Assembly: GCA_945947035.1 (NCBI GenBank)
Contig: CAMEXD010000004.1
Location: 2,362 to 66,361, forward strand
Length of the DNA stretch: 64,000 nucleotides
Direction of reading: 5' to 3'
Source: an uncultured Mycoplasma sp.
GTDB taxonomy: Bacteria; Bacillota_I; Bacilli_A; RF39; UBA660
A program made the position numbers and the translations under genes. Positions 1-12,280 of this stretch are shown piece after piece. Numbering within the stretch: position 1 is the first letter of the stretch; each line of letters begins with the position of its first letter. The notes below the pieces were generated by a model. That model was not told the DNA's origin, searched no databases, and worked only from the letters and a program-made list of their open reading frames with translations.

Positions 1-249
1 AAAATTATTGAAGTTATAATTGAAGAAGAAAGTTTTTCTAAAGAAAAATTCAATGAAAAAGTTGCAACAACATTGGCTTGTAAAATGAGTATTAAAGCAA
101 ATGAGTATGTTTCACTTGAAGAATTAAAGGTTTTAATTGAGAGATTAAGACAGACAAATAATCCTTTTACTTGTCCTCATGGTAGACCAACAATTATAAG
201 TTACTCTATTTATGAATTGGAAAAATTATTTAAAAGGGTTATGCAATAA
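1..249 (+). CDS. mutL: DNA mismatch repair protein MutL, C-terminal fragment (gene begins upstream of the window)
   Basis: Frame 1 from the window start ends in TAA at 247-249. The translation ...FTCPHGRPTIISYSIYELEKLFKRVMQ has the CPHGRP motif typical of the MutL C-terminal domain, and miaA follows as in the conserved mutL-miaA arrangement. Confidence 0.7.
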   Translation, partial: KIIEVIIEEESFSKEKFNEKVATTLACKMSIKANEYVSLEELKVLIERLRQTNNPFTCPHGRPTIISYSIYELEKLFKRVMQ

Positions 250-266
250 GAAAGGGCAGAGGGTTT

Positions 267-1304
267 ATGGATTTTGACAAATTAAATGATTTAAAAATAA
301 AATATTCAGATAAGGCAGAAGAACAAAATGAAATTATTAAAAATTTAGAAGAAGAATTAAAAAATAAAAGTTATTTGAGTGAGAAATCAAGACTTATTAG
401 AACAATGATTTTTACAGGTGTTTCTTTTCTTATTTTAACTTTAACATCAAAAGGAATAATAAGTAGTAATCCAGCATTAATGTCATTTTTATTACCAATT
501 TTATCTACTGGAGTTGGATATTTAACTAATAAATCTTATGAAAAAATATTTTTAAATCTTGGTGATGAAAATAATAAAACAACAATGAGACTACTTGAGG
601 AAAGTTTAGAAAAAAGTATTGAAGAAGAAATAATTTTAAGAAAACAAGATATTTATGTTTTATGTAATCATAATTTTTATGCTAAAGAAAAAATTGATGA
701 AAAACTAGTTAAAAGTGGTGTTAATGTTGATATAAAAGATAAAAGAAGTTTAGAAGAAATTAAAGAAAAAATAATAAGTTTAAAAGTAATAGAAGATGAA
801 TCTTTTGATTTACTAAAGATGTTATGTGCTAAAAAAATTATGCTTGTTTATTTTGATTCATATAAAGATAATAAGCTTAATAAATTAAAAGAATTTTTTA
901 AGACTAATATTGCACTTCTTACAACTATGGTTTTAACAATGATTCCTTTTGTTTTTATTAAAGTTCCTGTTGATATATTATCTTTATTAGTATCATCAAG
1001 TGCAATAAGTTTAGTATATAGTAATTTTTTAATAAAAGATAACAAGGATAATTTTGATGTTTATAATGAAATTAAAGAAAAATATAATTATAAAGAATTA
1101 GCTTCTTATGAAACAATAAGAGATATAAATTGTAAAATAGAACTTCTTGTGGCAGAGTTATCAAAAACAATTAATATGATTGAAGAAGAAAAAATAAATT
1201 TAGAAGAAAAGAAAAACGAATTACAAAATGATAATGTTTTAGAAGATTACAAAAGTGATAAATTATCTGAAGATAAAAAAATAATAAGAGTAAGAAAAAA
1301 GTAG
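267..1304 (+). CDS. hypothetical membrane protein with Glu/Lys-rich coiled-coil segments
   Basis: 345-aa ORF with a hydrophobic segment (FTGVSFLILTLTS...) and long charged helical stretches. No recognisable catalytic motif. Confidence 0.4.
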   Translation: MDFDKLNDLKIKYSDKAEEQNEIIKNLEEELKNKSYLSEKSRLIRTMIFTGVSFLILTLTSKGIISSNPALMSFLLPILSTGVGYLTNKSYEKIFLNLGDENNKTTMRLLEESLEKSIEEEIILRKQDIYVLCNHNFYAKEKIDEKLVKSGVNVDIKDKRSLEEIKEKIISLKVIEDESFDLLKMLCAKKIMLVYFDSYKDNKLNKLKEFFKTNIALLTTMVLTMIPFVFIKVPVDILSLLVSSSAISLVYSNFLIKDNKDNFDVYNEIKEKYNYKELASYETIRDINCKIELLVAELSKTINMIEEEKINLEEKKNELQNDNVLEDYKSDKLSEDKKIIRVRKK

Positions 1305-2027
1305 GTGGTAAATTTGATTTATGCCATAGTAGGACCAACTGGAGTTGGTAAAACAAAACTTTCAATAGAATTAGCTAAAAAACTAAATGCAGAAATAATA
1401 AATTGTGATTGTATGCAAATATATAAAGAATTAAATATTGGAACAGCAAAAATTACAGAAGAAGAGATGGAAAATATAAAACATCATATGCTAAGCATAA
1501 AAAGTATAAATGAAGAATATAATGTTTTTAATTATCAAATAGATGCAAGAAAAATACTTAATAGTTTATTAAAACAAGGAAAAAACGTTGTTATAGTTGG
1601 AGGAACAGGTCTTTATTTAAAAGCACTTTTATATGATTATAATTTTAATGATGATAATAAAAAAAATGAAAAATTATATAAATTTAAACTAATTGGTTTA
1701 ACAAAAGACAGGGAAAATTTATATGAAGCTATAAATAATAGAGTGGATATCATGATAAATAATGGTTTAATAGAAGAAGCAAGATATCTTTATGATAATT
1801 ATAAGACATCAAGGGTTTTAAATGCTGCGATTGGTTATAAAGAATTTTTTCCTTACTTTGAAGGAGAGATAGAATTTGAAGAAGCAATTGATGAGGTTAA
1901 AAAATCATCAAGACATTATGCTAAAAGACAATTTACTTTCTTTAATAATCAATTTTTAGATATAGAATGGTTTGATGTTTCAAAGATAAAAATTGATGAT
2001 ATTGTAAAAAAAATAACAGAAGAGTAA
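1305..2027 (+). CDS. miaA: tRNA dimethylallyltransferase (short form)
   Basis: GTG start directly after the upstream stop. P-loop IVGPTGVGKT and the DCMQIY motif typical of MiaA. The position downstream of mutL is conserved. Confidence 0.85.
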   Translation: MVNLIYAIVGPTGVGKTKLSIELAKKLNAEIINCDCMQIYKELNIGTAKITEEEMENIKHHMLSIKSINEEYNVFNYQIDARKILNSLLKQGKNVVIVGGTGLYLKALLYDYNFNDDNKKNEKLYKFKLIGLTKDRENLYEAINNRVDIMINNGLIEEARYLYDNYKTSRVLNAAIGYKEFFPYFEGEIEFEEAIDEVKKSSRHYAKRQFTFFNNQFLDIEWFDVSKIKIDDIVKKITEE

Positions 2028-2038
2028 TTTCTGTTATT

Positions 2039-2932
2039 TTATTTTGCTTCAGAATATATGGTTTTATCAAAATGATGATTATTATCATTTAAATTATATA
2101 AAGTATTAGTATTAATTAAAAACATTTCTTTTAAAAGCATATTGCTGCCATCTGATACAACAGGATCATCATAAGTTAAATCAAGATGCAGCCAATTATT
2201 ATTGATATAAACAAGATTCCAAATATGATTATCAGTAGATATCTTATAATTATCAAGACCAAACTTACTTAAGAATAAAGCCATAGCATCGGTATAAGAG
2301 CTACAAATACCATAACCTTTTAATAAAACATCATTTGCTTTACCTGATTCAGTATCACTACTTTTATAATAATAGCTATTATTTATAATATAATCATGAA
2401 TTTTTTCTATTTTAGAAGTATTAGTCATATCACTTGTAATTTCACTATCTATGATAGCTTTAACTTTATTATTTAATGAAATTATATCATCATCACTATA
2501 TTTCTTTGTAACATTAATTGTAACTTTATCACTTTCCATAGTAGCATTAATACTAGAAAAAGAATTATAAGGATGAACAAAATTATTTATAGAAGATAAA
2601 ACTTCATTATCATTTAATATATTTCTAAAATCATTAATACAATTATCATAATAACTATCACAATAAAAGGTAAAAGTAGGGGTACCACTATTAATTATGG
2701 TATATAAAATATTTTTTGTTTCATCTTTATTAGTAGTAATAAAACTATCAGTAAGTTTTACATAATTATAACTTTTATTTTTAGCATAAGAATTATTATC
2801 TATTGTAATATTTTCATTATATAGTTTTTCTTGTCTTATATATTTATATATATCTTTTCTATAAATAAAGGCAAGAATTAATAAAAAAAATAATAAAACC
2901 GAAATAATCTTAAGTAATATTTTCATATTCAA
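2039..2932 (-). CDS. membrane-anchored transglutaminase-like cysteine peptidase domain protein
   Basis: N-terminal TM helix. A Cys/His/Asp triad is arranged as GYGICSSYT ... NHIWNLVYI ... HLDLTYDD, as in the transglutaminase-like superfamily. Confidence 0.55.
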   Translation of the reverse strand: MNMKILLKIISVLLFFLLILAFIYRKDIYKYIRQEKLYNENITIDNNSYAKNKSYNYVKLTDSFITTNKDETKNILYTIINSGTPTFTFYCDSYYDNCINDFRNILNDNEVLSSINNFVHPYNSFSSINATMESDKVTINVTKKYSDDDIISLNNKVKAIIDSEITSDMTNTSKIEKIHDYIINNSYYYKSSDTESGKANDVLLKGYGICSSYTDAMALFLSKFGLDNYKISTDNHIWNLVYINNNWLHLDLTYDDPVVSDGSNMLLKEMFLINTNTLYNLNDNNHHFDKTIYSEAK

Positions 2933-2985
2933 TCACCAATTCAATTTTAAAATAAATAAAAAAATAAAGCAATAATTAAGATTTA

Positions 2986-3249
2986 CTACTTTATTTTGTT
3001 TACAGCTTTCATTAATTTTGATTTATCTCTTGCTGCTTTATTCTTTTTAATAATACCTGCTTTTAAAGCTTTATCTATCTTTTTTACAGCATCTTTCATA
3101 TTATTTTCTGCTTGTTTTACATCGTTATTTTTAATATCATTTCTAGTTTTTTTAATAGCTGTTCTCATACTAGATATATCTTCTCTATTAGATATTCTTT
3201 TTTTAGCATCAGTTTTTACTCTTTTTTTAGCACTTTTAATATTTGGCAC
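2986..3249 (-). CDS. rpsT: 30S ribosomal protein S20
   Basis: 87-aa basic protein starting MPNIKSAKKRVKTD... and rich in Lys/Arg. The rpsT-gpr-spoIIP neighbourhood matches Bacillus/Clostridium. Confidence 0.9.
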   Translation of the reverse strand: MPNIKSAKKRVKTDAKKRISNREDISSMRTAIKKTRNDIKNNDVKQAENNMKDAVKKIDKALKAGIIKKNKAARDKSKLMKAVNKIK

Positions 3250-3478
3250 TTGTTTTCACCTCACTTTTTTAATCAATATAATATTAACAAAAAATTATAA
3301 AAAATGCAAACAAAATCGTTAAAAATATATGCTTTTATGTTATTTTTTATTAATTGCTAAATATTTTTACTTAATTATGGACAATTATATTTAAAATGTG
3401 TTAGAATTATCTTATAGAAAATAATACATTTTTTGTGTTAAAAAGGAGTGAAAAAAAATATGCAAGCAAAAATTCGAC

Positions 3479-5413
3479 ATGGGGGGGCAAGTTAAAAAAC
3501 TATCATTAATAATAGGAATAGTAGGATTATTAATATTAGTAATAGGAATAACGTTTGCCCTATATAATATAGACTTAAAAGGATTAAGAGAACATTTTAT
3601 AACAACAAATAAATTAACATTTTCTTATAAAGAACCAATCGAAAGTCTAAATTTAATATCGTATAATAGTTTGACAGACGAAGAAGGAAAAAAACAAAAT
3701 ACTTATTATGAATTTACAGTAAAAGGAACAAGTGAAGCACCTGAAGTAATAGACTATGTAATTTATTTACAAAAAGAAGAAGCAGAAAGAACTTTTAATG
3801 AAAGCGATTTGAAAGTATATTTAACAAAAGTGGAAAATGATGTTGAAACAGAAGTAGTTTCTCCAACCTTACTAAGTAAATTTTTAGAATATAATAATAT
3901 AAGTGATACTAAAGCATTATATGGAAGTAGTATGAATCTAACAGGGAATTTAGATATAACAGATACATATAGATTAAGAATCTGGTTAAAAGAAGATTTT
4001 GATTTTAATAGTTTAAAAAGTTCAACAACAACAAATGGAGAACAAAATATAAAAATAGAACAATACGAATATAAATTTAAAGTAAATGTAGCAACAGGAT
4101 TTATGCCAGAGATAAAATGTGATTCAATGTTAGTAGATAATAGTGGCGCAAATGCACCAGAATTACCGACAAATGCTATAGCAGTATGTTATAATAGTGC
4201 AAATGATGTCTGGTTAAAAGCAGATACAACTAATACAAATAGCAATTATCAATGGTATTCATATAGTGGAAAAACATGGGCCAATGCCGTAACAGTAACA
4301 GAAGCAAATAGAGAAGAATATTTAAATGCAGAAGTAGGAACAGAAATCAGTATGGATGATATAAATACAATGTGGGTGTGGATACCAAGGTTTACAGCTA
4401 CTGGTGATACAGCAAATTATAATGGAGGAACAATAGATAATCCTGGAGCATTTGATATAACATTTGTAAGTAAAACAACAACAGCACATGATGCATTCAC
4501 TTTTGGCACAGATGAATTAAACGGCTTTTGGGTAGGTAAATTTGAAACAGGAATTATTTCATCTGTAACCCTAGAATGTGATAATACTCTTGGAACATGT
4601 GATATATCGAATTTTTTAATAAAACCTGATGTAGGATCCTTTAGTATTGATAGTATAGAAGGTAGTAATAACAGTTTTAGTTTAGCTAATACTTTCTATT
4701 TCGGAAGGAGTATAGGAAAAAGTGGCAATCCATATGGGTTTGATAATACAAAAGATATAACACTAGATACCCATACTATAAAAAACAATGAATGTAGCGC
4801 AGTAGCATATTTAACTCAAAGTATCTATGGCAGATGTACGTCAAGTACAAATTGCACAGAAGTATATTTCAATAATAGTACTGGTTATACAGGTCGAAGT
4901 GGAGGAAATGTCGGGGGTTCAACACCAATAAATGAAACATATCCAGATCAAACATCAACAGATCAATATAATGCCTATGGATTTTACACATATGATGGAT
5001 ATTTATTAGAATATAATACTAATAATAAAACAACAACAAAGGATATGAGTAAAGTAGCATCAACAACCGGAAATATCTATGGTGTATATGATATGAGTGG
5101 TGGACGTTTTGAAACGGTCATGGGAATTTATGATGACACTACTGAATATGGCTTCAATATTAATGATGTAACTAATATTGATGCCAAATACTATAATAGT
5201 TATGATAGTAGTACAAATTATACCAATGCTAACTTACAACATGCTTTAGTAGAGACCAAAGGATGGTATGGAGACGGCGGTACTATGCCAAATCCTTATT
5301 CGCCGTATATTGCAAGAGGTGGAAGTTATGCTGAATCAGCTTCAAGTTCTGGTATTTTTTATTTCTATAGTTCTAGTCGTAGATATAATCCTCGTATCGT
5401 TTTGGTTAAATAA
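3479..5413 (+). CDS. membrane-anchored secreted protein with a C-terminal FGE-sulfatase (SUMF1/DUF323-like) domain, apparently phase-variable (see G7 tract)
   Basis: N-terminal signal anchor LSLIIGIVGLLILVIGITFALY. The C-terminal part carries FWVGKFETG, YGVYDMSGGRFETVMG and ARGGSYAESA, matching the conserved blocks of formylglycine-generating-enzyme-like domains. The ATG at 3479 lacks an RBS, and a strongly RBS-served ATG at 3460 is out of frame because of a G7 tract. Confidence 0.6.
   Translation: MGGQVKKLSLIIGIVGLLILVIGITFALYNIDLKGLREHFITTNKLTFSYKEPIESLNLISYNSLTDEEGKKQNTYYEFTVKGTSEAPEVIDYVIYLQKEEAERTFNESDLKVYLTKVENDVETEVVSPTLLSKFLEYNNISDTKALYGSSMNLTGNLDITDTYRLRIWLKEDFDFNSLKSSTTTNGEQNIKIEQYEYKFKVNVATGFMPEIKCDSMLVDNSGANAPELPTNAIAVCYNSANDVWLKADTTNTNSNYQWYSYSGKTWANAVTVTEANREEYLNAEVGTEISMDDINTMWVWIPRFTATGDTANYNGGTIDNPGAFDITFVSKTTTAHDAFTFGTDELNGFWVGKFETGIISSVTLECDNTLGTCDISNFLIKPDVGSFSIDSIEGSNNSFSLANTFYFGRSIGKSGNPYGFDNTKDITLDTHTIKNNECSAVAYLTQSIYGRCTSSTNCTEVYFNNSTGYTGRSGGNVGGSTPINETYPDQTSTDQYNAYGFYTYDGYLLEYNTNNKTTTKDMSKVASTTGNIYGVYDMSGGRFETVMGIYDDTTEYGFNINDVTNIDAKYYNSYDSSTNYTNANLQHALVETKGWYGDGGTMPNPYSPYIARGGSYAESASSSGIFYFYSSSRRYNPRIVLVK
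3481..3487 (+). repeat. homopolymeric G7 tract in the translation-initiation region of the 3479..5413 gene (candidate slipped-strand phase-variation switch)
   Basis: GGGGGGG at 3481-3487 in a roughly 27% GC genome. RBS AAAGGAGTG (3442-3450) serves the ATG at 3460, which reads MQAKIRHGGAS-stop with G7. With G6 or G9 it reads straight into the 644-aa ORF. Confidence 0.6.
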
Positions 5414-5479
5414 AAAAATTAAGAATAAAAAATAATTAAAAAACAAAAAATTACCAATACTAATATTGGTGATTTTTTT

Positions 5480-6502
5480 ATGGATTCTGAAAAAGATTTA
5501 AGTATGTTTACAACAAGAACAGACTTAGTAGATGATTTATCATTAAATAAAAAAGAAATATATGAGGAAGTATATGAAGAAGGAAATGCTAAAGTAAGTA
5601 GGGTATTTATTAATGACAAACAAGCATCTTTAATTGATAAAAAAAGTGGTTATTATACAACTATTTCATTTAGTGATACAACTGATCATAATAATTATTC
5701 TAATGTTAAAAATGTATTTATTAAGGAACTAAATAATATGTTTTCAAAGGAAAATATTAAAGATAATGATACTTGTATGGTAATAGGTCTTGGAAATAGT
5801 AATTCTACTCCTGATTCTTTAGGCATTAAAACTAGTGAAAATGTTATTGTAACAAAACATATTTATGATTTGTTTGGTACTTTAGAAAGTGGTTATCGTA
5901 TTACTTCAATGTTTAATCCTGGTGTTATGGGAGAAACTGGTATTGAAACAAGTGATGTTATAACTAAAATAATTGATTTAGTTGATCCATCTTTTGTTAT
6001 TGTTATTGATGCTCTTGCTAGTTTATCAATTGATAGGGTATGTAAAACAATTCAAATAACTAATGCTGGAATAAATCCTGGATCTGGTATAGGAAATAAA
6101 AGAAAAGAAATAAGCTATGATTCTATAAAAAGACCAATTATTGCAATTGGCGTACCAATGGTTGTTGATGCCGCAACAATTGTATCTGATACTATTAATT
6201 ATATGGAACAACATTTTAGTTATAATATAAAAAATAAAGATTTAAAAATTAATAAGCTAATACCTAGTTCAAAGCAAAATTATTTGAAAGAAAAAAACTT
6301 ATCTCTATCAAGTGAAGAAAAAAGTTACTTTTTTGGTAAAATTGGTACTTTAGATGATTACGAAAAAAGAACACTTATTTTTGATGTTTTAACCCCAATT
6401 GGTTATAATCTTATGGTAACTCCAAAAGAAGTAGATTTTTTAGTAGATTCTCTTAGCAAACTATTAAGCGAAGGTATAAATAGTTGTCTTCATCATATAT
6501 AA
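5480..6502 (+). CDS. gpr: germination protease (spore endopeptidase GPR)
   Basis: Motifs RTDLVDDL, MVIGLGNSNSTPDSLG, IVIDALAS and ITNAGINPGSGIGNKR match the GPR family. The conserved rpsT-gpr-spoIIP synteny supports the call. Confidence 0.85.
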   Translation: MDSEKDLSMFTTRTDLVDDLSLNKKEIYEEVYEEGNAKVSRVFINDKQASLIDKKSGYYTTISFSDTTDHNNYSNVKNVFIKELNNMFSKENIKDNDTCMVIGLGNSNSTPDSLGIKTSENVIVTKHIYDLFGTLESGYRITSMFNPGVMGETGIETSDVITKIIDLVDPSFVIVIDALASLSIDRVCKTIQITNAGINPGSGIGNKRKEISYDSIKRPIIAIGVPMVVDAATIVSDTINYMEQHFSYNIKNKDLKINKLIPSSKQNYLKEKNLSLSSEEKSYFFGKIGTLDDYEKRTLIFDVLTPIGYNLMVTPKEVDFLVDSLSKLLSEGINSCLHHI

Positions 6503-6556
6503 CGACAAAATATAAAACCAATATATTATATAATTTTTCTATGAATGGAGGATTGT

Positions 6557-7405
6557 ATGAAAAAAATATTGGTTTTTATATTTGTTATTTTATCGTTTTA
6601 TTTATTTTTGAATTATCTAACAAAAGATACTAATTTAATTAAAAAAATATTATTTGATAAAGTAAGTCTTTTAAATAGTGAAAAAAATAATGAAACATTA
6701 AAAGAGATAAATAGAATTGTTATTTCTAAACAAAATGAAAGTTTATTTAATTTGCTTAGTATAGAAAGTAATAAAAAAACTACTTTAGTTAATTTAGAAC
6801 AAGATTCTCCACTTGTTTATATTTATAATACTCATGATAAAGAAGATTATGTTAATCCTGATTATTCCATATATAATATTAATTGCAATGTTAAAACGGC
6901 ATCTTATATTTTACAAGATAAATTAAAAGAATATAACATTAATTCTATTGTTGAAGAAAGAAGTCCTACTAATGAGGTAAGCAAAAACAAATTAGATTAT
7001 AAATACACTTATAGTTATTCAAGAACTTATTTAGAAGAAGCTATAAAAAATTATCCAAGTGTTAAAATATTTATTGATTTACATCGTGATGGTGTAAAAA
7101 AAGAAGTATCAACTGCGGTTATAAATGGAACAAGCTATGCTAAACTTATGTTTTTTTTAGGATTAGGTCATGAAAATAGCAAGGAAAACCAAAAACTTGT
7201 AAATGACTTGGAAAATATTATAAAAAAAGATTATAAAGAAATTCTAAGAAATACTTTTATAAGGGAAAATGATAGTTATAATCAAGATTTATCTCCTAAT
7301 TCATTTTTAATTGAAGTTGGTGGAAACTATAATACTATTGAAGAAGTATATAATTCTCTTGATGTTTTAGCATATGCTATAAAAACGTATTTGGAGGAAG
7401 CATGA
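6557..7405 (+). CDS. spoIIP: stage II sporulation protein P (SpoIIP)
   Basis: RBS GGAGGA then ATG 6557. N-terminal TM. The VYIYNTHDKEDY block resembles the SpoIIP IYHTH motif. It lies immediately downstream of gpr as in Bacillus. Confidence 0.75.
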   Translation: MKKILVFIFVILSFYLFLNYLTKDTNLIKKILFDKVSLLNSEKNNETLKEINRIVISKQNESLFNLLSIESNKKTTLVNLEQDSPLVYIYNTHDKEDYVNPDYSIYNINCNVKTASYILQDKLKEYNINSIVEERSPTNEVSKNKLDYKYTYSYSRTYLEEAIKNYPSVKIFIDLHRDGVKKEVSTAVINGTSYAKLMFFLGLGHENSKENQKLVNDLENIIKKDYKEILRNTFIRENDSYNQDLSPNSFLIEVGGNYNTIEEVYNSLDVLAYAIKTYLEEA

Positions 7406-7719
7406 GCGGAAAAATTTTAAAAGGAATATTCTTAATACTACTTTTTTCATTTATAGTTCTTTTAGTTTTAGAGGAAACAGGTTATTATCAAACTAGAACT
7501 AGTAAAGTAAAAACATTAACTGAAGAACAAATAAAAGTATTTGAAGAAGATATTAAAGCAGGTAAAGAAATAGATATAGAAGAATATGTTGTTACTAGAA
7601 CTAACTATGCTAATGAATTATCTAATAATATTTATAAAATATCTTTAAAACTAGAAAAAGGGGTTGATACAGTTATTAAGTTTATATTTAAAAAAATAAA
7701 TAATATGGTTGATGAGTAA
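7402..7719 (+). CDS. small membrane protein (YqxA-like position after spoIIP)
   Basis: 105 aa with an N-terminal TM helix, overlapping the spoIIP stop. The call is positional only. Confidence 0.35.
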   Translation: MSGKILKGIFLILLFSFIVLLVLEETGYYQTRTSKVKTLTEEQIKVFEEDIKAGKEIDIEEYVVTRTNYANELSNNIYKISLKLEKGVDTVIKFIFKKINNMVDE

Positions 7720-7840
7720 AATAAGAAAAATTGTCATAATTTGTCGAACGATTTTTCTGATAATTAAATAATTACTTTATTTATAATAGATAACTTAAGT
7801 TAAAGAAATTACTTAAGTTTTTTTTATTGAAGGAATTTTT

Positions 7841-8276
7841 ATGAACTATTATAATGAAATAAAAAAATTAATAAATAATGAAGTATATAAAAAAAGTTAA
7901 AGACTATAGTAAAAATAAAAGTGATTTAACTACTTATTATAATGCTGGAAAATTAATCGTTGAGGCCCAAGGTGGAGAAAAACGTGCAAAATATGGTGAT
8001 AATTTAATAAAAGAATATTCCAAAAAATTAACAATGGAGTTAGGAAAAAATTATAGCGAAAGAAATTTAAGAAATATGCGTCAATTTTATTTGATTTTAA
8101 GAAAACAGAATTGGCAGACAATGTCTGCCAAATTAACATGGAGTCATTATGTAGAACTAATATTGATTTCTGATAAAAATATAAGACAATTTTATATTTT
8201 TTGCAAAAAAGGTCCGACATTGTCGGACAATTTATATTGGAGTTGCTATGTAAAAATAATTTGTGTTGAAAGATAA
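7841..8276 (+). pseudogene. YhcG/DUF1016-family nuclease-related gene remnant, frameshifted in an A7 run and 3'-truncated
   Basis: ATG 7841 gives MNYYNEIKKLINNEVYKKS-stop (frame A). The DUF1016 N-terminal signature continues in another frame from 7878: GEKRAKYGDNLIKEYSKKLTMELGKNYSERNLRNMRQFY...LTWSHYVELI. The frame switch is at the A7 tract 7889-7895. The ORF ends at about 130 aa whereas family members are about 340 aa with a C-terminal PD-(D/E)XK domain. Confidence 0.55.
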
Positions 8277-8427
8277 CAATTTTGTTATGGAATATTGTAG
8301 TGATTCTAGGATATTTACTAAAGAATACGTTTTAACTTTATTTTACGTAAACTGAAATTTTTGTCAGATTATTTTTTATTAAAATAGGAAAAAACTATTT
8401 ACAAATAATTAAAAAACTAGTAAAATT

Positions 8428-8462
8428 GTGGTAGAAAGTGGATTAAAATGGTGGAAAGTGGT
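8428..8462 (+). promoter_or_regulatory. direct repeats GTGGT/GTGGA x4 upstream of and overlapping the mraZ RBS (candidate MraZ operator)
   Basis: GTGGT 8428, GTGGA 8438, GTGGA 8451, GTGGT 8458. MraZ proteins are known to bind direct repeats of GTGG-type boxes upstream of their own gene. Confidence 0.3.
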
Positions 8463-8469
8463 GATTAAT

Positions 8470-8907
8470 ATGTTGATGGGTGAATTTAATCATTCAATTG
8501 ATGACAAATTAAGACTCATTATTCCTTCAAAGTTTCGTGATGAACTTGGAGAAAAAGTAATCATTACTCGTGGTTTGGAAAACTGTTTATTTATCTATTC
8601 AGAAAAAGAATGGGAAAAGGTTGTTTCTAAACTAAAATCATTGCCATTCACTAAAAAAGACGCTAGAAGCTTTACAAGAATGTTTTTATCTGGCGCCACA
8701 ACAGAAGAATTTGACAAACAAGGAAGAATTAAAATAACTAAGCAATTAAAAGATTATGCATCTTTAATTAAAGATTGTGTTGTAATTGGAGTAAATGATA
8801 GATTAGAAGTATGGTCTAAAGAAAATTGGGATAATTACTTTAATGAAAGAGTAGATAATCTATCAGATGTTGCAGAAAAGTTATTTGAAAATGATTTAGA
8901 TTTCTAG
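8470..8907 (+). CDS. mraZ: transcriptional regulator MraZ
   Basis: Starting at ATG 8470 the protein reads MLMGEFNHSIDDKLRLIIPSKFRDELGEKVIITRGLENCLF..., matching MraZ N-termini (MFMGEY.H.ID.KGR). Two MraZ half-domains are present. The ORF-track start at 8428 is an upstream extension. Confidence 0.9.
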   Translation: MLMGEFNHSIDDKLRLIIPSKFRDELGEKVIITRGLENCLFIYSEKEWEKVVSKLKSLPFTKKDARSFTRMFLSGATTEEFDKQGRIKITKQLKDYASLIKDCVVIGVNDRLEVWSKENWDNYFNERVDNLSDVAEKLFENDLDF

Positions 8908-8915
8908 GTGATTAT

Positions 8916-9839
8916 ATGCATATTAGTGTTTTAAAAGAAGAGGCTATTACTGGTTTGAATATTAAAGAAGATGGCATTTATGTAGATATGACTTTAGGTT
9001 ATGCCGGTCATGCTAGTGAAATTTTGAAAAGGAATAAAAAGGGGTTTCTATTCGCTTTTGATAAAGATATAAATGCTTGTAATTATAGTACTGATGTACT
9101 TAAAAAAATTGGTTCTAACTTCAAAATATTCAATACCGGTAATATAAATATGAAAGAAGTATTAAAACAGGAAGGTATTGAAAAAGTAGATGGTTTTCTA
9201 TTTGACTTAGGATTATCAAGTGTTGAAATTGATAATGGAAGTAGGGGCTTTAGTTATATGGTTGATGCTTTACTTGATATGAGAATGGATACAAATAGCA
9301 CTTTTTCTGCCAAAGACCTTGTAAATACTTATAGTGAAAAAGATTTATATCTTATATTTAGAGACTATGGTGAAGAAAAATATGCTAAAAAAATAGCTTC
9401 TAAAATAGTGGAACAAAGAAGTATAAAAGAAATTGAAACAACTTTAGAATTAGTAGACATTATAGATTCTTGTATTCCTTATAAAGATAAAAGACATGGT
9501 CATCCTGCTAAAAGGGTATTTCAAGCTATAAGAATTGAAGTAAATAATGAACTTGGTGAATTTAAAAAAGCTTTAACTGATGCTTTAGAGCTTTTAAATG
9601 TTGATGGATATATCTCTTGTATAACATTTCATTCTTTGGAAGATAGAATTTGTAAAAATATATTTAAAAGTGTAAGTGAAGTAGATCCAGTAATAAAAGG
9701 ACTTCCTAATGTTGATCCATCTTTATTACCTGATTATGAAATTGTAACTAAAAAGCCAATTTTACCAAGTGATATGGAAATAAATAAAAATCCAAGAAGT
9801 AAAAGTGCAAAATTAAGAATTATTAAAAGAGTAAAATAA
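8916..9839 (+). CDS. rsmH: 16S rRNA (cytosine1402-N4)-methyltransferase RsmH (MraW)
   Basis: HISVLKEEAI...DMTLGYAGHA N-terminal SAM-MTase motif. Position after mraZ. Confidence 0.9.
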   Translation: MHISVLKEEAITGLNIKEDGIYVDMTLGYAGHASEILKRNKKGFLFAFDKDINACNYSTDVLKKIGSNFKIFNTGNINMKEVLKQEGIEKVDGFLFDLGLSSVEIDNGSRGFSYMVDALLDMRMDTNSTFSAKDLVNTYSEKDLYLIFRDYGEEKYAKKIASKIVEQRSIKEIETTLELVDIIDSCIPYKDKRHGHPAKRVFQAIRIEVNNELGEFKKALTDALELLNVDGYISCITFHSLEDRICKNIFKSVSEVDPVIKGLPNVDPSLLPDYEIVTKKPILPSDMEINKNPRSKSAKLRIIKRVK

Positions 9840-9851
9840 GGAGACATTTTT

Positions 9852-10136
9852 ATGAAAAAAATAAAAAGAAAATTAACTAAATTTGAATTAATTGTTTATA
9901 CATTTACAATACTTTTATCTATGTTATTCCCACTTTTTTCAGTTTATTCTAAATCAATTTTATCAAAAGTAAACTATGAGGTTGAAGAAATAAAAGAAGA
10001 AACAGAAAAAAGAACAAAAACTAATGAGGATTTAAAGATGCAAGTAAATGAATTAGCGTCTTTAGAAAACTTAGAAAGTGTTGCTAAAGAAATGGGATTA
10101 GTGTATACTTATAATAACGTTAAAGTTGTAGAATAA
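9852..10136 (+). CDS. ftsL: cell division protein FtsL-like (single TM plus coiled coil)
   Basis: 94 aa with an N-terminal TM helix followed by a coiled coil. Canonical position between rsmH and the PBP gene. Confidence 0.55.
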   Translation: MKKIKRKLTKFELIVYTFTILLSMLFPLFSVYSKSILSKVNYEVEEIKEETEKRTKTNEDLKMQVNELASLENLESVAKEMGLVYTYNNVKVVE

Positions 10137-10156
10137 TTTTAAGTAAGGTGATAATA

Positions 10157-12280
10157 ATGGAAAAGTGCAAAAACAATATTAAGTTTAGTAATTTATTTAT
10201 TGTTTTGGCTTTTTTTTGTTTTGCAATTATTGTATATCGTGTTGTTTATCTTGCAACTGCTAAAGAAATAGATGGTATTGATATAAAAGCTTTTGCAGAT
10301 GATAGAAAAATTTATGAAAGTGTAATACCTGCAACCCGTGGTAATATATTAGATACTAATGGTGAAGTTTTAGCAACTACTGTTTCAACATATAAATTAA
10401 TTGCTTACATTGATCCAATAAGAAGTGAAGGAGAAAACAAACTTTATCACGTTGAAGATAAAAAAAATACTGCTAAAGAACTTTCTAAAATTTTAAATAT
10501 GGATGAAAAAGAAATATATAATATCTTAAATCAAGAAAATTTATATCAAGTTGAATTTGGTTCTAAAGGAAAAAATTTAACGCAGTCCCAAAAAGAAAAA
10601 ATAGATAGTTTAAATTTACCAGGCCTTGATTTTATTGAAAGCAAAGAAAGATATTATCCTAATGGAGATTTTGCATCATATACTTTAGGTTATGCGAGAA
10701 ATGATGAAGATGGAGTAATAACTGGAGAACTAGGTTTAGAATCAGTTTTAAACGACCAATTGAAAGGAAAAGATGGTTATACATCATATCAAGTTGATGT
10801 AAATAATTATAAGATTGCAGGAACAAAAGAGATAAAAGAAGATGCAGTAGATGGCTTGAATGTTTATTTAACAATTGATAGTAATATTCAGTATATAGTA
10901 GAACAAGCCTTAAATGATGTGAGTAATAAATATAAATTTGATTGGATTGTAGCAGTTGTTTGTGATGCAAAAACAGGAAAAATTTTAGCAACATCTCAAA
11001 AACCTTCTTTTAATCCGAATCCTAAAGAACTTGATATCGAAAATTACTTAGATTTATCTGTAGCTAATCCTTTTGAACCAGGTTCTATCATGAAAATATA
11101 TACTTATATGGCAGCAATGGAAGCAGGAACTTATGATGGAAATGCTAAATTCAAATCAGGTGGATATAAGGTGGATGATGATGTAACAATTTATGACTGG
11201 CAAAAACAAGGTTGGGGACTTATTACTTATGATCAAGGTTTTATGGCATCATCTAACGTTGGTGTTATTAATATAGTAAATGAATTTATTGATAGAGATA
11301 CTTTATATAAATATTTTAAAAAATTAGGTTTTGGTGAAAAGACAAATATAACTCTAGCTAATGAACAAGCAGGAAAATTATCTTTCTATTACGATTCAGA
11401 AGTTTATAATGCAGCTTTTGGACAAGGTATAACAACAACTCCAATGCAACATATAAAAGCATTAACATCTATTGCAAATGATGGTGTTATGTTAAATCCT
11501 TATATAATTGACAAAGTTGTAACAAAATCTGGTGAAGTAATATATGAAGGAAAAAAAGAAGAACTTGGTGTTGTCGCATCAAAAGAAACAACAGATTACA
11601 TAAAAAATTTAATGTATGATACGGTTCATTCATCATGGAGTGGCGCAACAGGAACTAGTTATAAACTAAAAGGCTATGATTTAATAGGAAAAACAGGTAC
11701 TGCCCAACTAGTTAATCCAACAACTGGAAAATATTATACAAGTTATTATCAAAGTATCAGATCTTTTGTTGGTATGTGGCCTAAAGAAGAACCTGAAGTT
11801 ATAATATATATGTCTGTAAAAAAATCAGAATATAATTATCCACTTGTAACTGCAGTAAAATCAATTGTAAAAAATGTAAGTACTTATTTAAATATCTTTG
11901 ATACACAAAGTAATGAAGTTATAGAAAATAAAAAGATAGATAATTATTTAAATAAAGAAACAACAGAAGTTTTAAATACATTAAAAGATGAAAAAATAGA
12001 TGCAGTTGTAATTGGTGATGGTGATAAAATAATAAATCAATATCCTAAAAAAGATTATTTACTAAGTAGTAATGAAAAAGTTATTCTAGTAACTAATGGT
12101 ACCTATAAAATGCCTGATTTAAAAGGATATAGTAAAAAAGAAGTAAGAGCAATATGTGATATGTTAGATTTAAATTGTACTTTATCTGGATTTGGTTATG
12201 TTAAAAGTCAAAGTATAAAAAAAGATACTATAATAAAACCTGGTACTGAAATAAAATTTGTATTTAAAGAATTATATTAA
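10157..12280 (+). CDS. penicillin-binding protein, class B transpeptidase (FtsI/PBP2B/SpoVD type) with two C-terminal PASTA domains
   Basis: N-terminal TM and dimerisation domain. Transpeptidase motifs are SSN (GFMASSNVG) and KTG (IGKTGTAQ). Two PASTA-like repeats at the C-terminus. Confidence 0.85.
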   Translation: MEKCKNNIKFSNLFIVLAFFCFAIIVYRVVYLATAKEIDGIDIKAFADDRKIYESVIPATRGNILDTNGEVLATTVSTYKLIAYIDPIRSEGENKLYHVEDKKNTAKELSKILNMDEKEIYNILNQENLYQVEFGSKGKNLTQSQKEKIDSLNLPGLDFIESKERYYPNGDFASYTLGYARNDEDGVITGELGLESVLNDQLKGKDGYTSYQVDVNNYKIAGTKEIKEDAVDGLNVYLTIDSNIQYIVEQALNDVSNKYKFDWIVAVVCDAKTGKILATSQKPSFNPNPKELDIENYLDLSVANPFEPGSIMKIYTYMAAMEAGTYDGNAKFKSGGYKVDDDVTIYDWQKQGWGLITYDQGFMASSNVGVINIVNEFIDRDTLYKYFKKLGFGEKTNITLANEQAGKLSFYYDSEVYNAAFGQGITTTPMQHIKALTSIANDGVMLNPYIIDKVVTKSGEVIYEGKKEELGVVASKETTDYIKNLMYDTVHSSWSGATGTSYKLKGYDLIGKTGTAQLVNPTTGKYYTSYYQSIRSFVGMWPKEEPEVIIYMSVKKSEYNYPLVTAVKSIVKNVSTYLNIFDTQSNEVIENKKIDNYLNKETTEVLNTLKDEKIDAVVIGDGDKIINQYPKKDYLLSSNEKVILVTNGTYKMPDLKGYSKKEVRAICDMLDLNCTLSGFGYVKSQSIKKDTIIKPGTEIKFVFKELY

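Follow-up and report, generated by a model that had tools for sequence, protein, structure and literature searches.

Does a run of seven guanines in the first codons of a gene act as an on/off switch for a surface protein in an uncultured gut bacterium? The question is raised by a 64,000-base stretch of contig CAMEXD010000004.1 (the window), in which the gene annotated as encoding the 644-residue protein P0001 is separated by such a run, and by one reading frame, from the only start codon for which a strong Shine-Dalgarno (SD) sequence is placed. From the frame logic of this G7 tract, a homologous leader in a relative and the poly-G tracts found across the protein family, we consider it likely that one member of a recombining surface-protein repertoire is switched here by slipped-strand changes in a poly-G tract within its signal-peptide leader. 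The elements of the proposed switch are the following.

3442–3450, + strand: SD sequence AAAGGAGTG, read from the sequence; nine A/T bases separate it from ATG 3460
3460–3495, + strand: leader frame from the SD-served ATG, MQAKIRHGGAS*, 11 codons at G7, with the stop at 3493–3495
3479–3481, + strand: alternative ATG without an SD; its G is the first G of the tract, and it is the annotated start of P0001
3479–5413, + strand: long open reading frame (ORF), 644 residues as annotated (P0001), free of further frameshift or stop
3481–3487, + strand: G7 homopolymer, the proposed slipped-strand switch, encoding Gly-Gly(-Gly) of the signal-peptide n-region

Direct reading of the leader codons (ATG CAA GCA AAA ATT CGA CAT GGG GGG GCA AGT TAA) bore out the original prediction that the SD at 3442–3450 serves ATG 3460 and that this frame ends after 11 codons at G7. 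The long ORF was likewise found to run for 644 residues from ATG 3479, out of frame with ATG 3460 and lacking a ribosome-binding site, with no SD-like motif within 20 nt 5' of ATG 3479. Tract lengths from G5 to G14 were simulated in silico and the ORFs followed from both ATGs. The product of ATG 3460 was 650, 651 and 652 residues long at G6, G9 and G12, respectively, and 11–18 residues long at the other lengths, in agreement with the earlier claim that one G fewer or two more would fuse this start to the protein. ATG 3479 was in frame with the long ORF only at G7, G10 and G13, and G8 shut both starts. With the repeat inside the reading frame, simulated unit changes toggled between a full-length and a truncated product.

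The tract stands out from its surroundings, being the sole run of at least six G or C in the whole window. Runs of at least seven G were expected 0.11 times in the window under an independent, identically distributed base model and 0.22 times under a first-order Markov model. The rarity originally claimed for the run is consistent with these figures; the GC content quoted with it (~27%) is not, the measured value being 25.2%.

A leader recognisably homologous to that of the window, ATGCAAaCAAAcATTCGctAT, was found at the related locus L086, where it is followed by G9 and is in frame. The L086 DNA (GGAAAGGTAGGAAAAT ATG CAA ACA AAC ATT CGC TAT G9 TTC AAA) and the window DNA (AAAGGAGTGAAAAAAAAT ATG CAA GCA AAA ATT CGA CAT G7 CAA GTT) share the pattern ATGCAA[A/G]CAAA[C/A]ATTCG[CT/AC]AT-Gn and the same ATG+18 nt geometry, with 16 of the 18 nt counted as identical, the SD position in L086 being occupied by GGAAAGGTAGG. 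In the ON frame the N-terminus of the corresponding protein, P0134, reads MQTNIRYGGG-FKYKHLAYIMFVIGLILLVIG, a signal peptide, and the protein (MQTNIRYGGGFKYKHLAYIMFVIGLILLVIG...) aligns with the G6 translation of the window from residue 1. Because the alignment begins at the first residue and the leaders are homologous, we take ATG 3460 to be the ancestral start; as judged from this comparison, the fused N-terminus (MQAKIRHGG...) is the conserved one. The same leader occurs at another tract length in the ON frame, G9 in L086 as against G7, OFF, in the window.

To place the tract in its family, 80 homologous loci were fetched (529 kb, 30% GC), covering 75 family genes with the 5' end included. 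A G run of at least seven was present at the 5' end in 31 of these 75 genes, and all G runs of at least eight in the 529 kb (36 of 36) lay on the coding strand. Among 149 unbiased family representatives, 11 began with a short GGG-containing leader before the hydrophobic segment. The tracts sort into three architectures, lying in a promoter spacer (type A), in the first codons (type B, to which the window belongs) or in a separate leader mini-ORF (type C). Thirteen other type-B leaders, including that of L086, were compared; their tracts contain 6–13 G, with five leaders ON and eight OFF.

OFF type-B leaders: L007 G10, L019 G11, L030 G13, L063 G9, L068 G10, L078 G10, L087 G10, L088 G10
ON type-B leaders: L082 G9, L084 G9, L086 G9, L089 G13, L083 (interrupted, G6CGC)

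Each OFF leader is one G away from an ORF of 400–700 residues opening with a charged leader and a hydrophobic segment. Three independent lines, the conserved fused N-terminus, the family-wide 5' poly-G and the differences in tract length and frame, together support the suggestion, made from the window alone, that the locus is a candidate phase switch. In the OFF relatives L087 and L088, gene callers start at a TTG or ATG on the tract, with the SD-served ATG upstream and out of frame, and the annotated starts of P0001, P0144 and P0222 all fall at the G run. We considered whether the ATG at the tract is a second start conserved across the leaders and rejected this as unproven: its A is found in just 3 of the 14 leaders, a T always standing 5' of the tract.

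Three further features of the leaders were observed. The base directly 5' of the G run was T in every tract inspected (L007–L089 and the window; ..caT-G, ..tcT-G, ..acT-G), while the base 3' of the runs was mostly C or T; the T may be a relic of a shared cassette ancestor or may be kept because it constrains slippage or is constrained by it. In L019, L078, L083 and L084, a conserved AAAGAGGAGGAnnGGTGTAA lies ~55–75 nt upstream of the leader ATG and consists of a strong SD and, after it, the start-stop pair GTG-TAA; the ATG of the leader, in front of the G tract, lacks an SD of its own. At L030:1281-2530, a poly-G leader and signal cassette (MVNKYSSGGGG-QNTSNKLKQNPLF..) is carried by a 410-residue protein that is not detectably a family member and has no Pfam match, so that the switchable 5' cassette appears to be modular and common to different secreted proteins.

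The product of the window gene was divided into three parts.

3500–3565, + strand: hydrophobic signal segment LSLIIGIVGLLILVIGITFALY, then a TasA/camelysin-like motif, from the translation; helix at residues 3–30 in the AlphaFold (AF2) model
3611–4096, + strand: N-terminal TasA-like beta-sandwich domain, residues ~45–206
4151–5410, + strand: C-terminal FGE/C-type-lectin-fold domain, residues ~225–644; it carries YGVYDMSGG..E.VM as a motif, and its C-terminal end is hypervariable

In the AlphaFold model, built from 120 homologues with a predicted local distance difference test (pLDDT) score of 68, the N-terminal helix corresponds to the signal segment and the beta-sandwich is predicted well. 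Searches of Pfam and NCBIfam gave no match above threshold for the 644-residue product, and PDB sequence searches with 20- and 120-sequence profiles returned nothing meaningful. The Pfam FGE-sulfatase family (PF03781) matched residues 490–552 only, at a sub-threshold E of 0.017 (15.2 bits against a cut-off of 23.3); among 20 relatives, two gave a match at E <= 0.1, and precomputed annotation lists PF03781 for a few of the longer relatives (P0076, P0107). The FGE/SUMF1-like domain originally proposed is therefore retained as a modelled FGE/C-type-lectin-like fold and not as a Pfam sequence match, the FGE label holding as a fold assignment only. An enzymatic role is not assumed, because the best fold matches, TaqVP and TvpA, are non-enzymatic binding proteins. 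The protein is a putative binding or adhesion module. It was originally described as membrane-anchored, but permanent anchoring is only one possibility: the segment at 3500–3565 could be a signal anchor or a cleavable signal peptide of the TasA/camelysin type, and of 20 relatives two gave weak matches to Peptidase_M73. From its charged leader and 22-residue hydrophobic segment, its TasA-like and lectin-fold domains, and its membership of a large mosaic family, the product is predicted to be exposed or otherwise surface-related.

The family itself is very large, with more than 4000 matches among 90% clusters and 2927 representatives at 50% clustering, and there are many paralogues per genome, in gut metagenome-assembled genomes labelled uncultured Bacilli, Tenericutes, Mycoplasma sp. 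CAG:611 or Candidatus Onthousia. No paralogue of the surface-protein gene was found within the window, and a phage database search with the locus gave no match. Comparison with individual relatives revealed patchwork identity. P0002 is 97–100% identical to the window protein over residues 61–300 (window 3660–4380) and 43% identical over residues 1–30, with a different, low-identity C-terminus and a different N-terminus lacking the G tract; P0006 is 87% identical over residues 451–510 and P0065 93% identical over residues 211–240. The mosaic structure apparent in these alignments is typical of variable surface families. Moreover, the contigs of a second assembly of the locus, GCA_019973115.1, break inside the stretch shared with P0002, one ending at ~3690 and the next beginning at 4301. 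The near-identity to P0002 and the assembly break at the same stretch suggest that the genome contains an almost identical paralogue and that window 3660–4380 has recently undergone gene conversion. The fold matches to TaqVP and TvpA also led us to consider the gene as the target of a diversity-generating retroelement (DGR). This was rejected, as blastn against the whole window found no second copy of 5150–5420 that could be a template repeat, a search that did not extend systematically to reverse transcriptase genes.

In the proposed mechanism, slipped-strand mispairing at replication would alter the number of Gs in the G7 tract. At G6 or G9, ATG 3460 would read through MQAKIRH-GG(G)-QVKK into the signal peptide and the whole protein, giving full ON expression. 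At G7, the assembled state, ribosomes from ATG 3460 would halt after 11 codons and the gene would be OFF or low, the protein body being made, weakly at best, only from the SD-less ATG 3479. Re-initiation at ATG 3479 would be possible, since ribosomes translating the mini-ORF terminate 12 nt downstream of that ATG. At G8, with both starts closed, the gene would be OFF. Were many family members individually poly-G-switched, a population with mixed surface repertoires would result. At the protein level, the states would be told apart by MQAKIRHGGQVKK-containing or signal-cleaved peptides on the one hand and peptides beginning MGGQVKK on the other. We infer that, in this organism, slippage of the tract is frequent enough to be useful and that the G7 state is low or OFF.

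Several observations weigh against an active switch at this locus. With seven Gs the tract is at the bottom of the range commonly taken as hypermutable (7–9 or more G/C) and falls short of the cut-off of at least nine Gs used for the Neisseria phasome (PMC5953494). It is also the shortest uninterrupted tract in the family, the relatives having G9–13, so that its switching rate may be low, and the closest full-length relatives (P0002–P0005; L001) have no G tract. The 3' end of mutL, encoding ..NPFTCPHGRPT.. with the conserved CPHGRP endonuclease motif, occupies window 1–249, and a complete MutL of 586 residues is seen in L090:4628-6388; mismatch repair is therefore present, and slippage at G7 may be infrequent. 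A strict SD motif precedes 36 of the 60 ORFs in the window and is lacking from the other 24; SD use is thus frequent here, if not universal, and ATG 3479 may work as a start, making weak expression at G7 possible. When JGI metagenomes were scanned by exact pattern for the leader, with the number of Gs left free, there were 0 matches, the protein cluster of the 644-residue product is a singleton, and look-ups of the records of P0001 and P0002 found nothing. The comparison of tract lengths suggested by the original prediction supports it across homologous leaders, which have 6–13 G and are both ON and OFF; at the same locus it comprises one further assembly. This assembly, GCA_019973115.1, is the sole one reached through the rpsT and gpr proteins and belongs to the same strain, with 0 mismatches over window 1–3589 and 4301–10502 (3.6 + 6.2 kb), and it also has G7. 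The agreement argues against a one-off consensus error and, coming from the same strain, has no bearing on variability.

The contig L090 (JAIFIJ010003178.1; here L090:1-1190) of GCA_019973115.1 was examined as an allele of the locus. It matches window 1–3589 at 100%, then shows 9 mismatches and, at ~3690, switches to foreign sequence of 47–50% GC encoding in frame a histidine-phosphatase-like (His_Phos_1) protein. It was rejected as an allele on account of this foreign sequence and is most likely a chimeric metagenome contig.

The likeliest of the other explanations is that a longer, phase-variable poly-G, like the G9 of L086, has contracted to G7 and become in effect fixed. The gene would then be low or OFF for good, on its way to becoming a pseudogene, or else be expressed from ATG 3479 at all times. 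The shortness of the tract, the presence of MutL and the G7 of the second assembly all count for it, as do the occurrence of interrupted, locked tracts in the family (L083, G6+CGC) and the experience that phasome surveys routinely meet homologues with a tract below the variable range (PMC5953494). We nevertheless think it unlikely, as the 644-codon body has acquired no second lesion and the very recent recombination with P0002 (97–100% over ~240 residues) argues that the gene is still under selection. In addition, G7 runs in the contingency loci of Campylobacter and Helicobacter slip orders of magnitude faster than point mutation. An ordinary gene, in which translation always begins at ATG 3479, the tract does no more than encode Gly-Gly and the mini-ORF from ATG 3460 is either fortuitous or a short upstream ORF, would agree with the public annotation of the 644-residue product P0001, with MGGQVKK and the hydrophobic segment remaining a plausible signal peptide, and with the 24 of 60 ORFs that lack a strict SD motif. 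This we regard as improbable: the G6 form matches P0134 from its first residue, the leaders are homologous in DNA with the same ATG+18 nt geometry, the sole strong SD is placed for ATG 3460, and the same start-at-tract artefact recurs in the OFF relatives L087 and L088.

A miscounted tract, with a true length of G6 or G9 and an intact gene, has to be weighed for any sequence from metagenome assemblies, homopolymers being a classic site of indel error and a population of mixed lengths collapsing to one consensus. It appears very improbable here, given that GCA_019973115.1 also gives G7 and that ORFs of at least 120 residues fill 84% of the window despite ~130 A/T runs of at least seven, a density of intact ORFs that leaves no sign of general homopolymer error. 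Furthermore, among the 13 related leader tracts, which come from many independent studies, 8 are out of frame, which fits biology and not a one-off error. Finally, the two frames could be joined with the DNA unchanged, by programmed +1 ribosomal frameshifting, for which GGG GGG G would permit re-pairing of tRNA-Gly in the +1 frame, or by transcriptional slippage on the G run. Such recoding seems to us barely credible, since the sequence has no stimulatory element (the A site holds neither a rare nor a stop codon, and a suitably spaced internal SD is absent), and homologous tracts occur in all three frames and at varied lengths, pointing to variation at the DNA level and not to a conserved recoding site; transcriptional slippage, moreover, usually needs runs of ~9 or more. 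A slipped-strand switch in the leader therefore remains the reading that we prefer.

The other two architectures extend this picture to the family as a whole. In type A, a near-consensus promoter with the tract in its spacer (TTGACnT-G9-TAGTTT-TATAAT) stands ~100 nt upstream of a family gene.

Type-A loci: L023, L026, L029, L032, L041–L043, L047, L048, L050, L064, L073; variants L020, L022, L033, L055

The spacer measures 16 nt at G9, 15 nt at G8 (L041) and 20 nt in the L022/L033/L055 subgroup, and the loci include three tandem paralogues on one contig (L041, L042 and L047). As judged from this promoter geometry, type A is transcriptional phase variation of the same family. Separately, in one of the variants (L022:847-2971), a reverse-transcriptase/maturase ORF (433 residues, 1536–2837) lies between the G9 promoter cassette and the family gene expected to be under its control; it is group II intron-like by sequence motifs alone. 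In type C, the tract lies in an SD-served leader mini-ORF of the form AGAAAGAAGGTA..ATG..GTTTACAAnnTGTTACyT-G9-11-CAGTTTAGTA.., 3' of which come TTACTTTCTTTCAT and a terminator-like hairpin (AAGAATAGAGGATAATTCTATTCTTTTTT).

Type-C loci: L051, L052, L054, L056, L057, L065, L070, L072, L074, L079 (two copies), L081; for example, L065:2770-2960

In the predicted RNA fold of L065 (z = -3.0), the anti-SD UUACUUUCUUUCAUUAU pairs with the SD of the main gene around the terminator-like hairpin, the segment TTACTTTCTTTCATTAT being predicted to pair with the main-gene SD ATAATGGAAGGAGTAA. Only one of the three leader-ORF frames reads through the anti-SD segment. The SD-served leader ATG was in a short frame in 9 of 10 scorable loci, L057 and L081 not being scorable. 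Rfam showed no known RNA family in five type-C relatives. On this model, type C may be a phase-variable leader-peptide attenuator, an arrangement of which we know no earlier description. Taken together, we give roughly even chances to the wider proposal that uncultured low-GC gut Bacilli have a poly-G phasome not yet described, to which the window gene belongs and in which thousands of mosaic secreted proteins with TasA-like and FGE/C-type-lectin-fold domains would be individually switched through a coding leader, a promoter spacer or a leader mini-ORF.

The nearest parallels are found in well-known phase-variable genera. The window arrangement resembles Neisseria pilC1/pilC2 in having a coding-strand G/C homopolymer in the first codons of a gene for a surface structure, where plus or minus one repeat toggles the frame; the pilC tract reportedly also lies in the signal-peptide-coding region. 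Switching of several paralogues independently is a further feature of pilC (PMC5953494). Neisseria, however, is a Gram-negative proteobacterium, the proteins are unrelated, and the Neisseria tracts are usually of at least nine, whereas the window has G7 and a second start overlapping the tract. Among Mycoplasma, translational switches are known in M. hominis vaa and M. fermentans p78, with poly-A in the 5' coding region, and a promoter-spacer switch in M. hyorhinis vlp. Here too the lineage is low-GC and related to Bacilli, the surface proteins form multigene families, and the homopolymer lies just after the start (window) or in the -35/-10 spacer (type A). The present loci differ from the Mycoplasma poly-A lipoprotein genes in using poly-G in a 25% GC genome and in their TasA-like and FGE/C-type-lectin folds, and the organism differs in being a walled spore-former with mutL.

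Campylobacter jejuni is AT-rich, nearly every long G run in it marks a phase-variable surface-related gene, and both ON and OFF states are met in assemblies (PMC11955535). The loci described here are similar in all three respects, with an AT-rich genome, long G runs at surface-related genes and ON and OFF forms assembled. They differ in that MutL is present and that the tracts belong to conserved 5' cassettes within a single protein family, not to diverse glycosylation genes; C. jejuni, to our knowledge, is without MutS/MutL mismatch repair. As in Haemophilus influenzae lic1, two starts in different frames could give three levels of expression (strong at G6/G9, weak at G7, none at G8), although the lic1 repeat is the tetranucleotide CAAT and the A of the ATG at the tract is not conserved in most relatives here. 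In contrast to the DGR proteins TaqVP and TvpA, diversity in the present family would come from paralogy, recombination and on/off switching and not from mutagenic retrohoming. The mechanism is thus classical; the family, the lineage and the use of three poly-G architectures by one family appear to be undescribed, searches of the literature having turned up no account of phase variation for either the lineage or the family.

Simple-repeat phase variation is textbook knowledge for pathogens such as Neisseria, Haemophilus, Campylobacter and Mycoplasma and scarcely documented in uncultured reduced-genome Bacilli, which abound in the guts of humans and animals. If such a switch operates, these commensals have many lectin-fold surface proteins that recombine and can be switched one by one, a likely route to evading phage, immunoglobulin A or changes in host glycans. 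There are practical consequences as well: gene callers systematically mis-start or truncate such genes at the tract, assemblies break inside them, and tract lengths in metagenomic reads could be mined as a direct read-out of population heterogeneity.

The location of the gene between rpsT and gpr, as originally described, was confirmed by Pfam matches to both neighbours.

2986–3249, - strand: rpsT (ribosomal protein S20), divergent left neighbour; Pfam PF01649, E 2e-24
3378–3407, + strand: candidate sigma-70-type promoter, TGGACA-18 nt-TAGAAT with TG before the -10 (extended -10); 10 of 12 matches in a consensus scan
5480–6502, + strand: gpr (germination protease), right neighbour; Pfam PF03418, E 5e-103
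6545–7405: spoIIP, downstream of gpr

The candidate promoter at 3378–3407 contains no G tract. In DNA as AT-rich as this, promoter-like matches turn up about as often as chance predicts (22 against an expected 21), and the site is a plausible promoter by position only. A terminator scan predicted no terminator-like site between the surface-protein gene and gpr. Farther downstream, window 7878–8276 holds a 132-residue ORF that matches just the N-terminal domain of DUF1016/YhcG-type nucleases (PF17761, E 4e-26) and probably represents what is left of a truncated gene; it lies between the spoIIP operon and mraZ.

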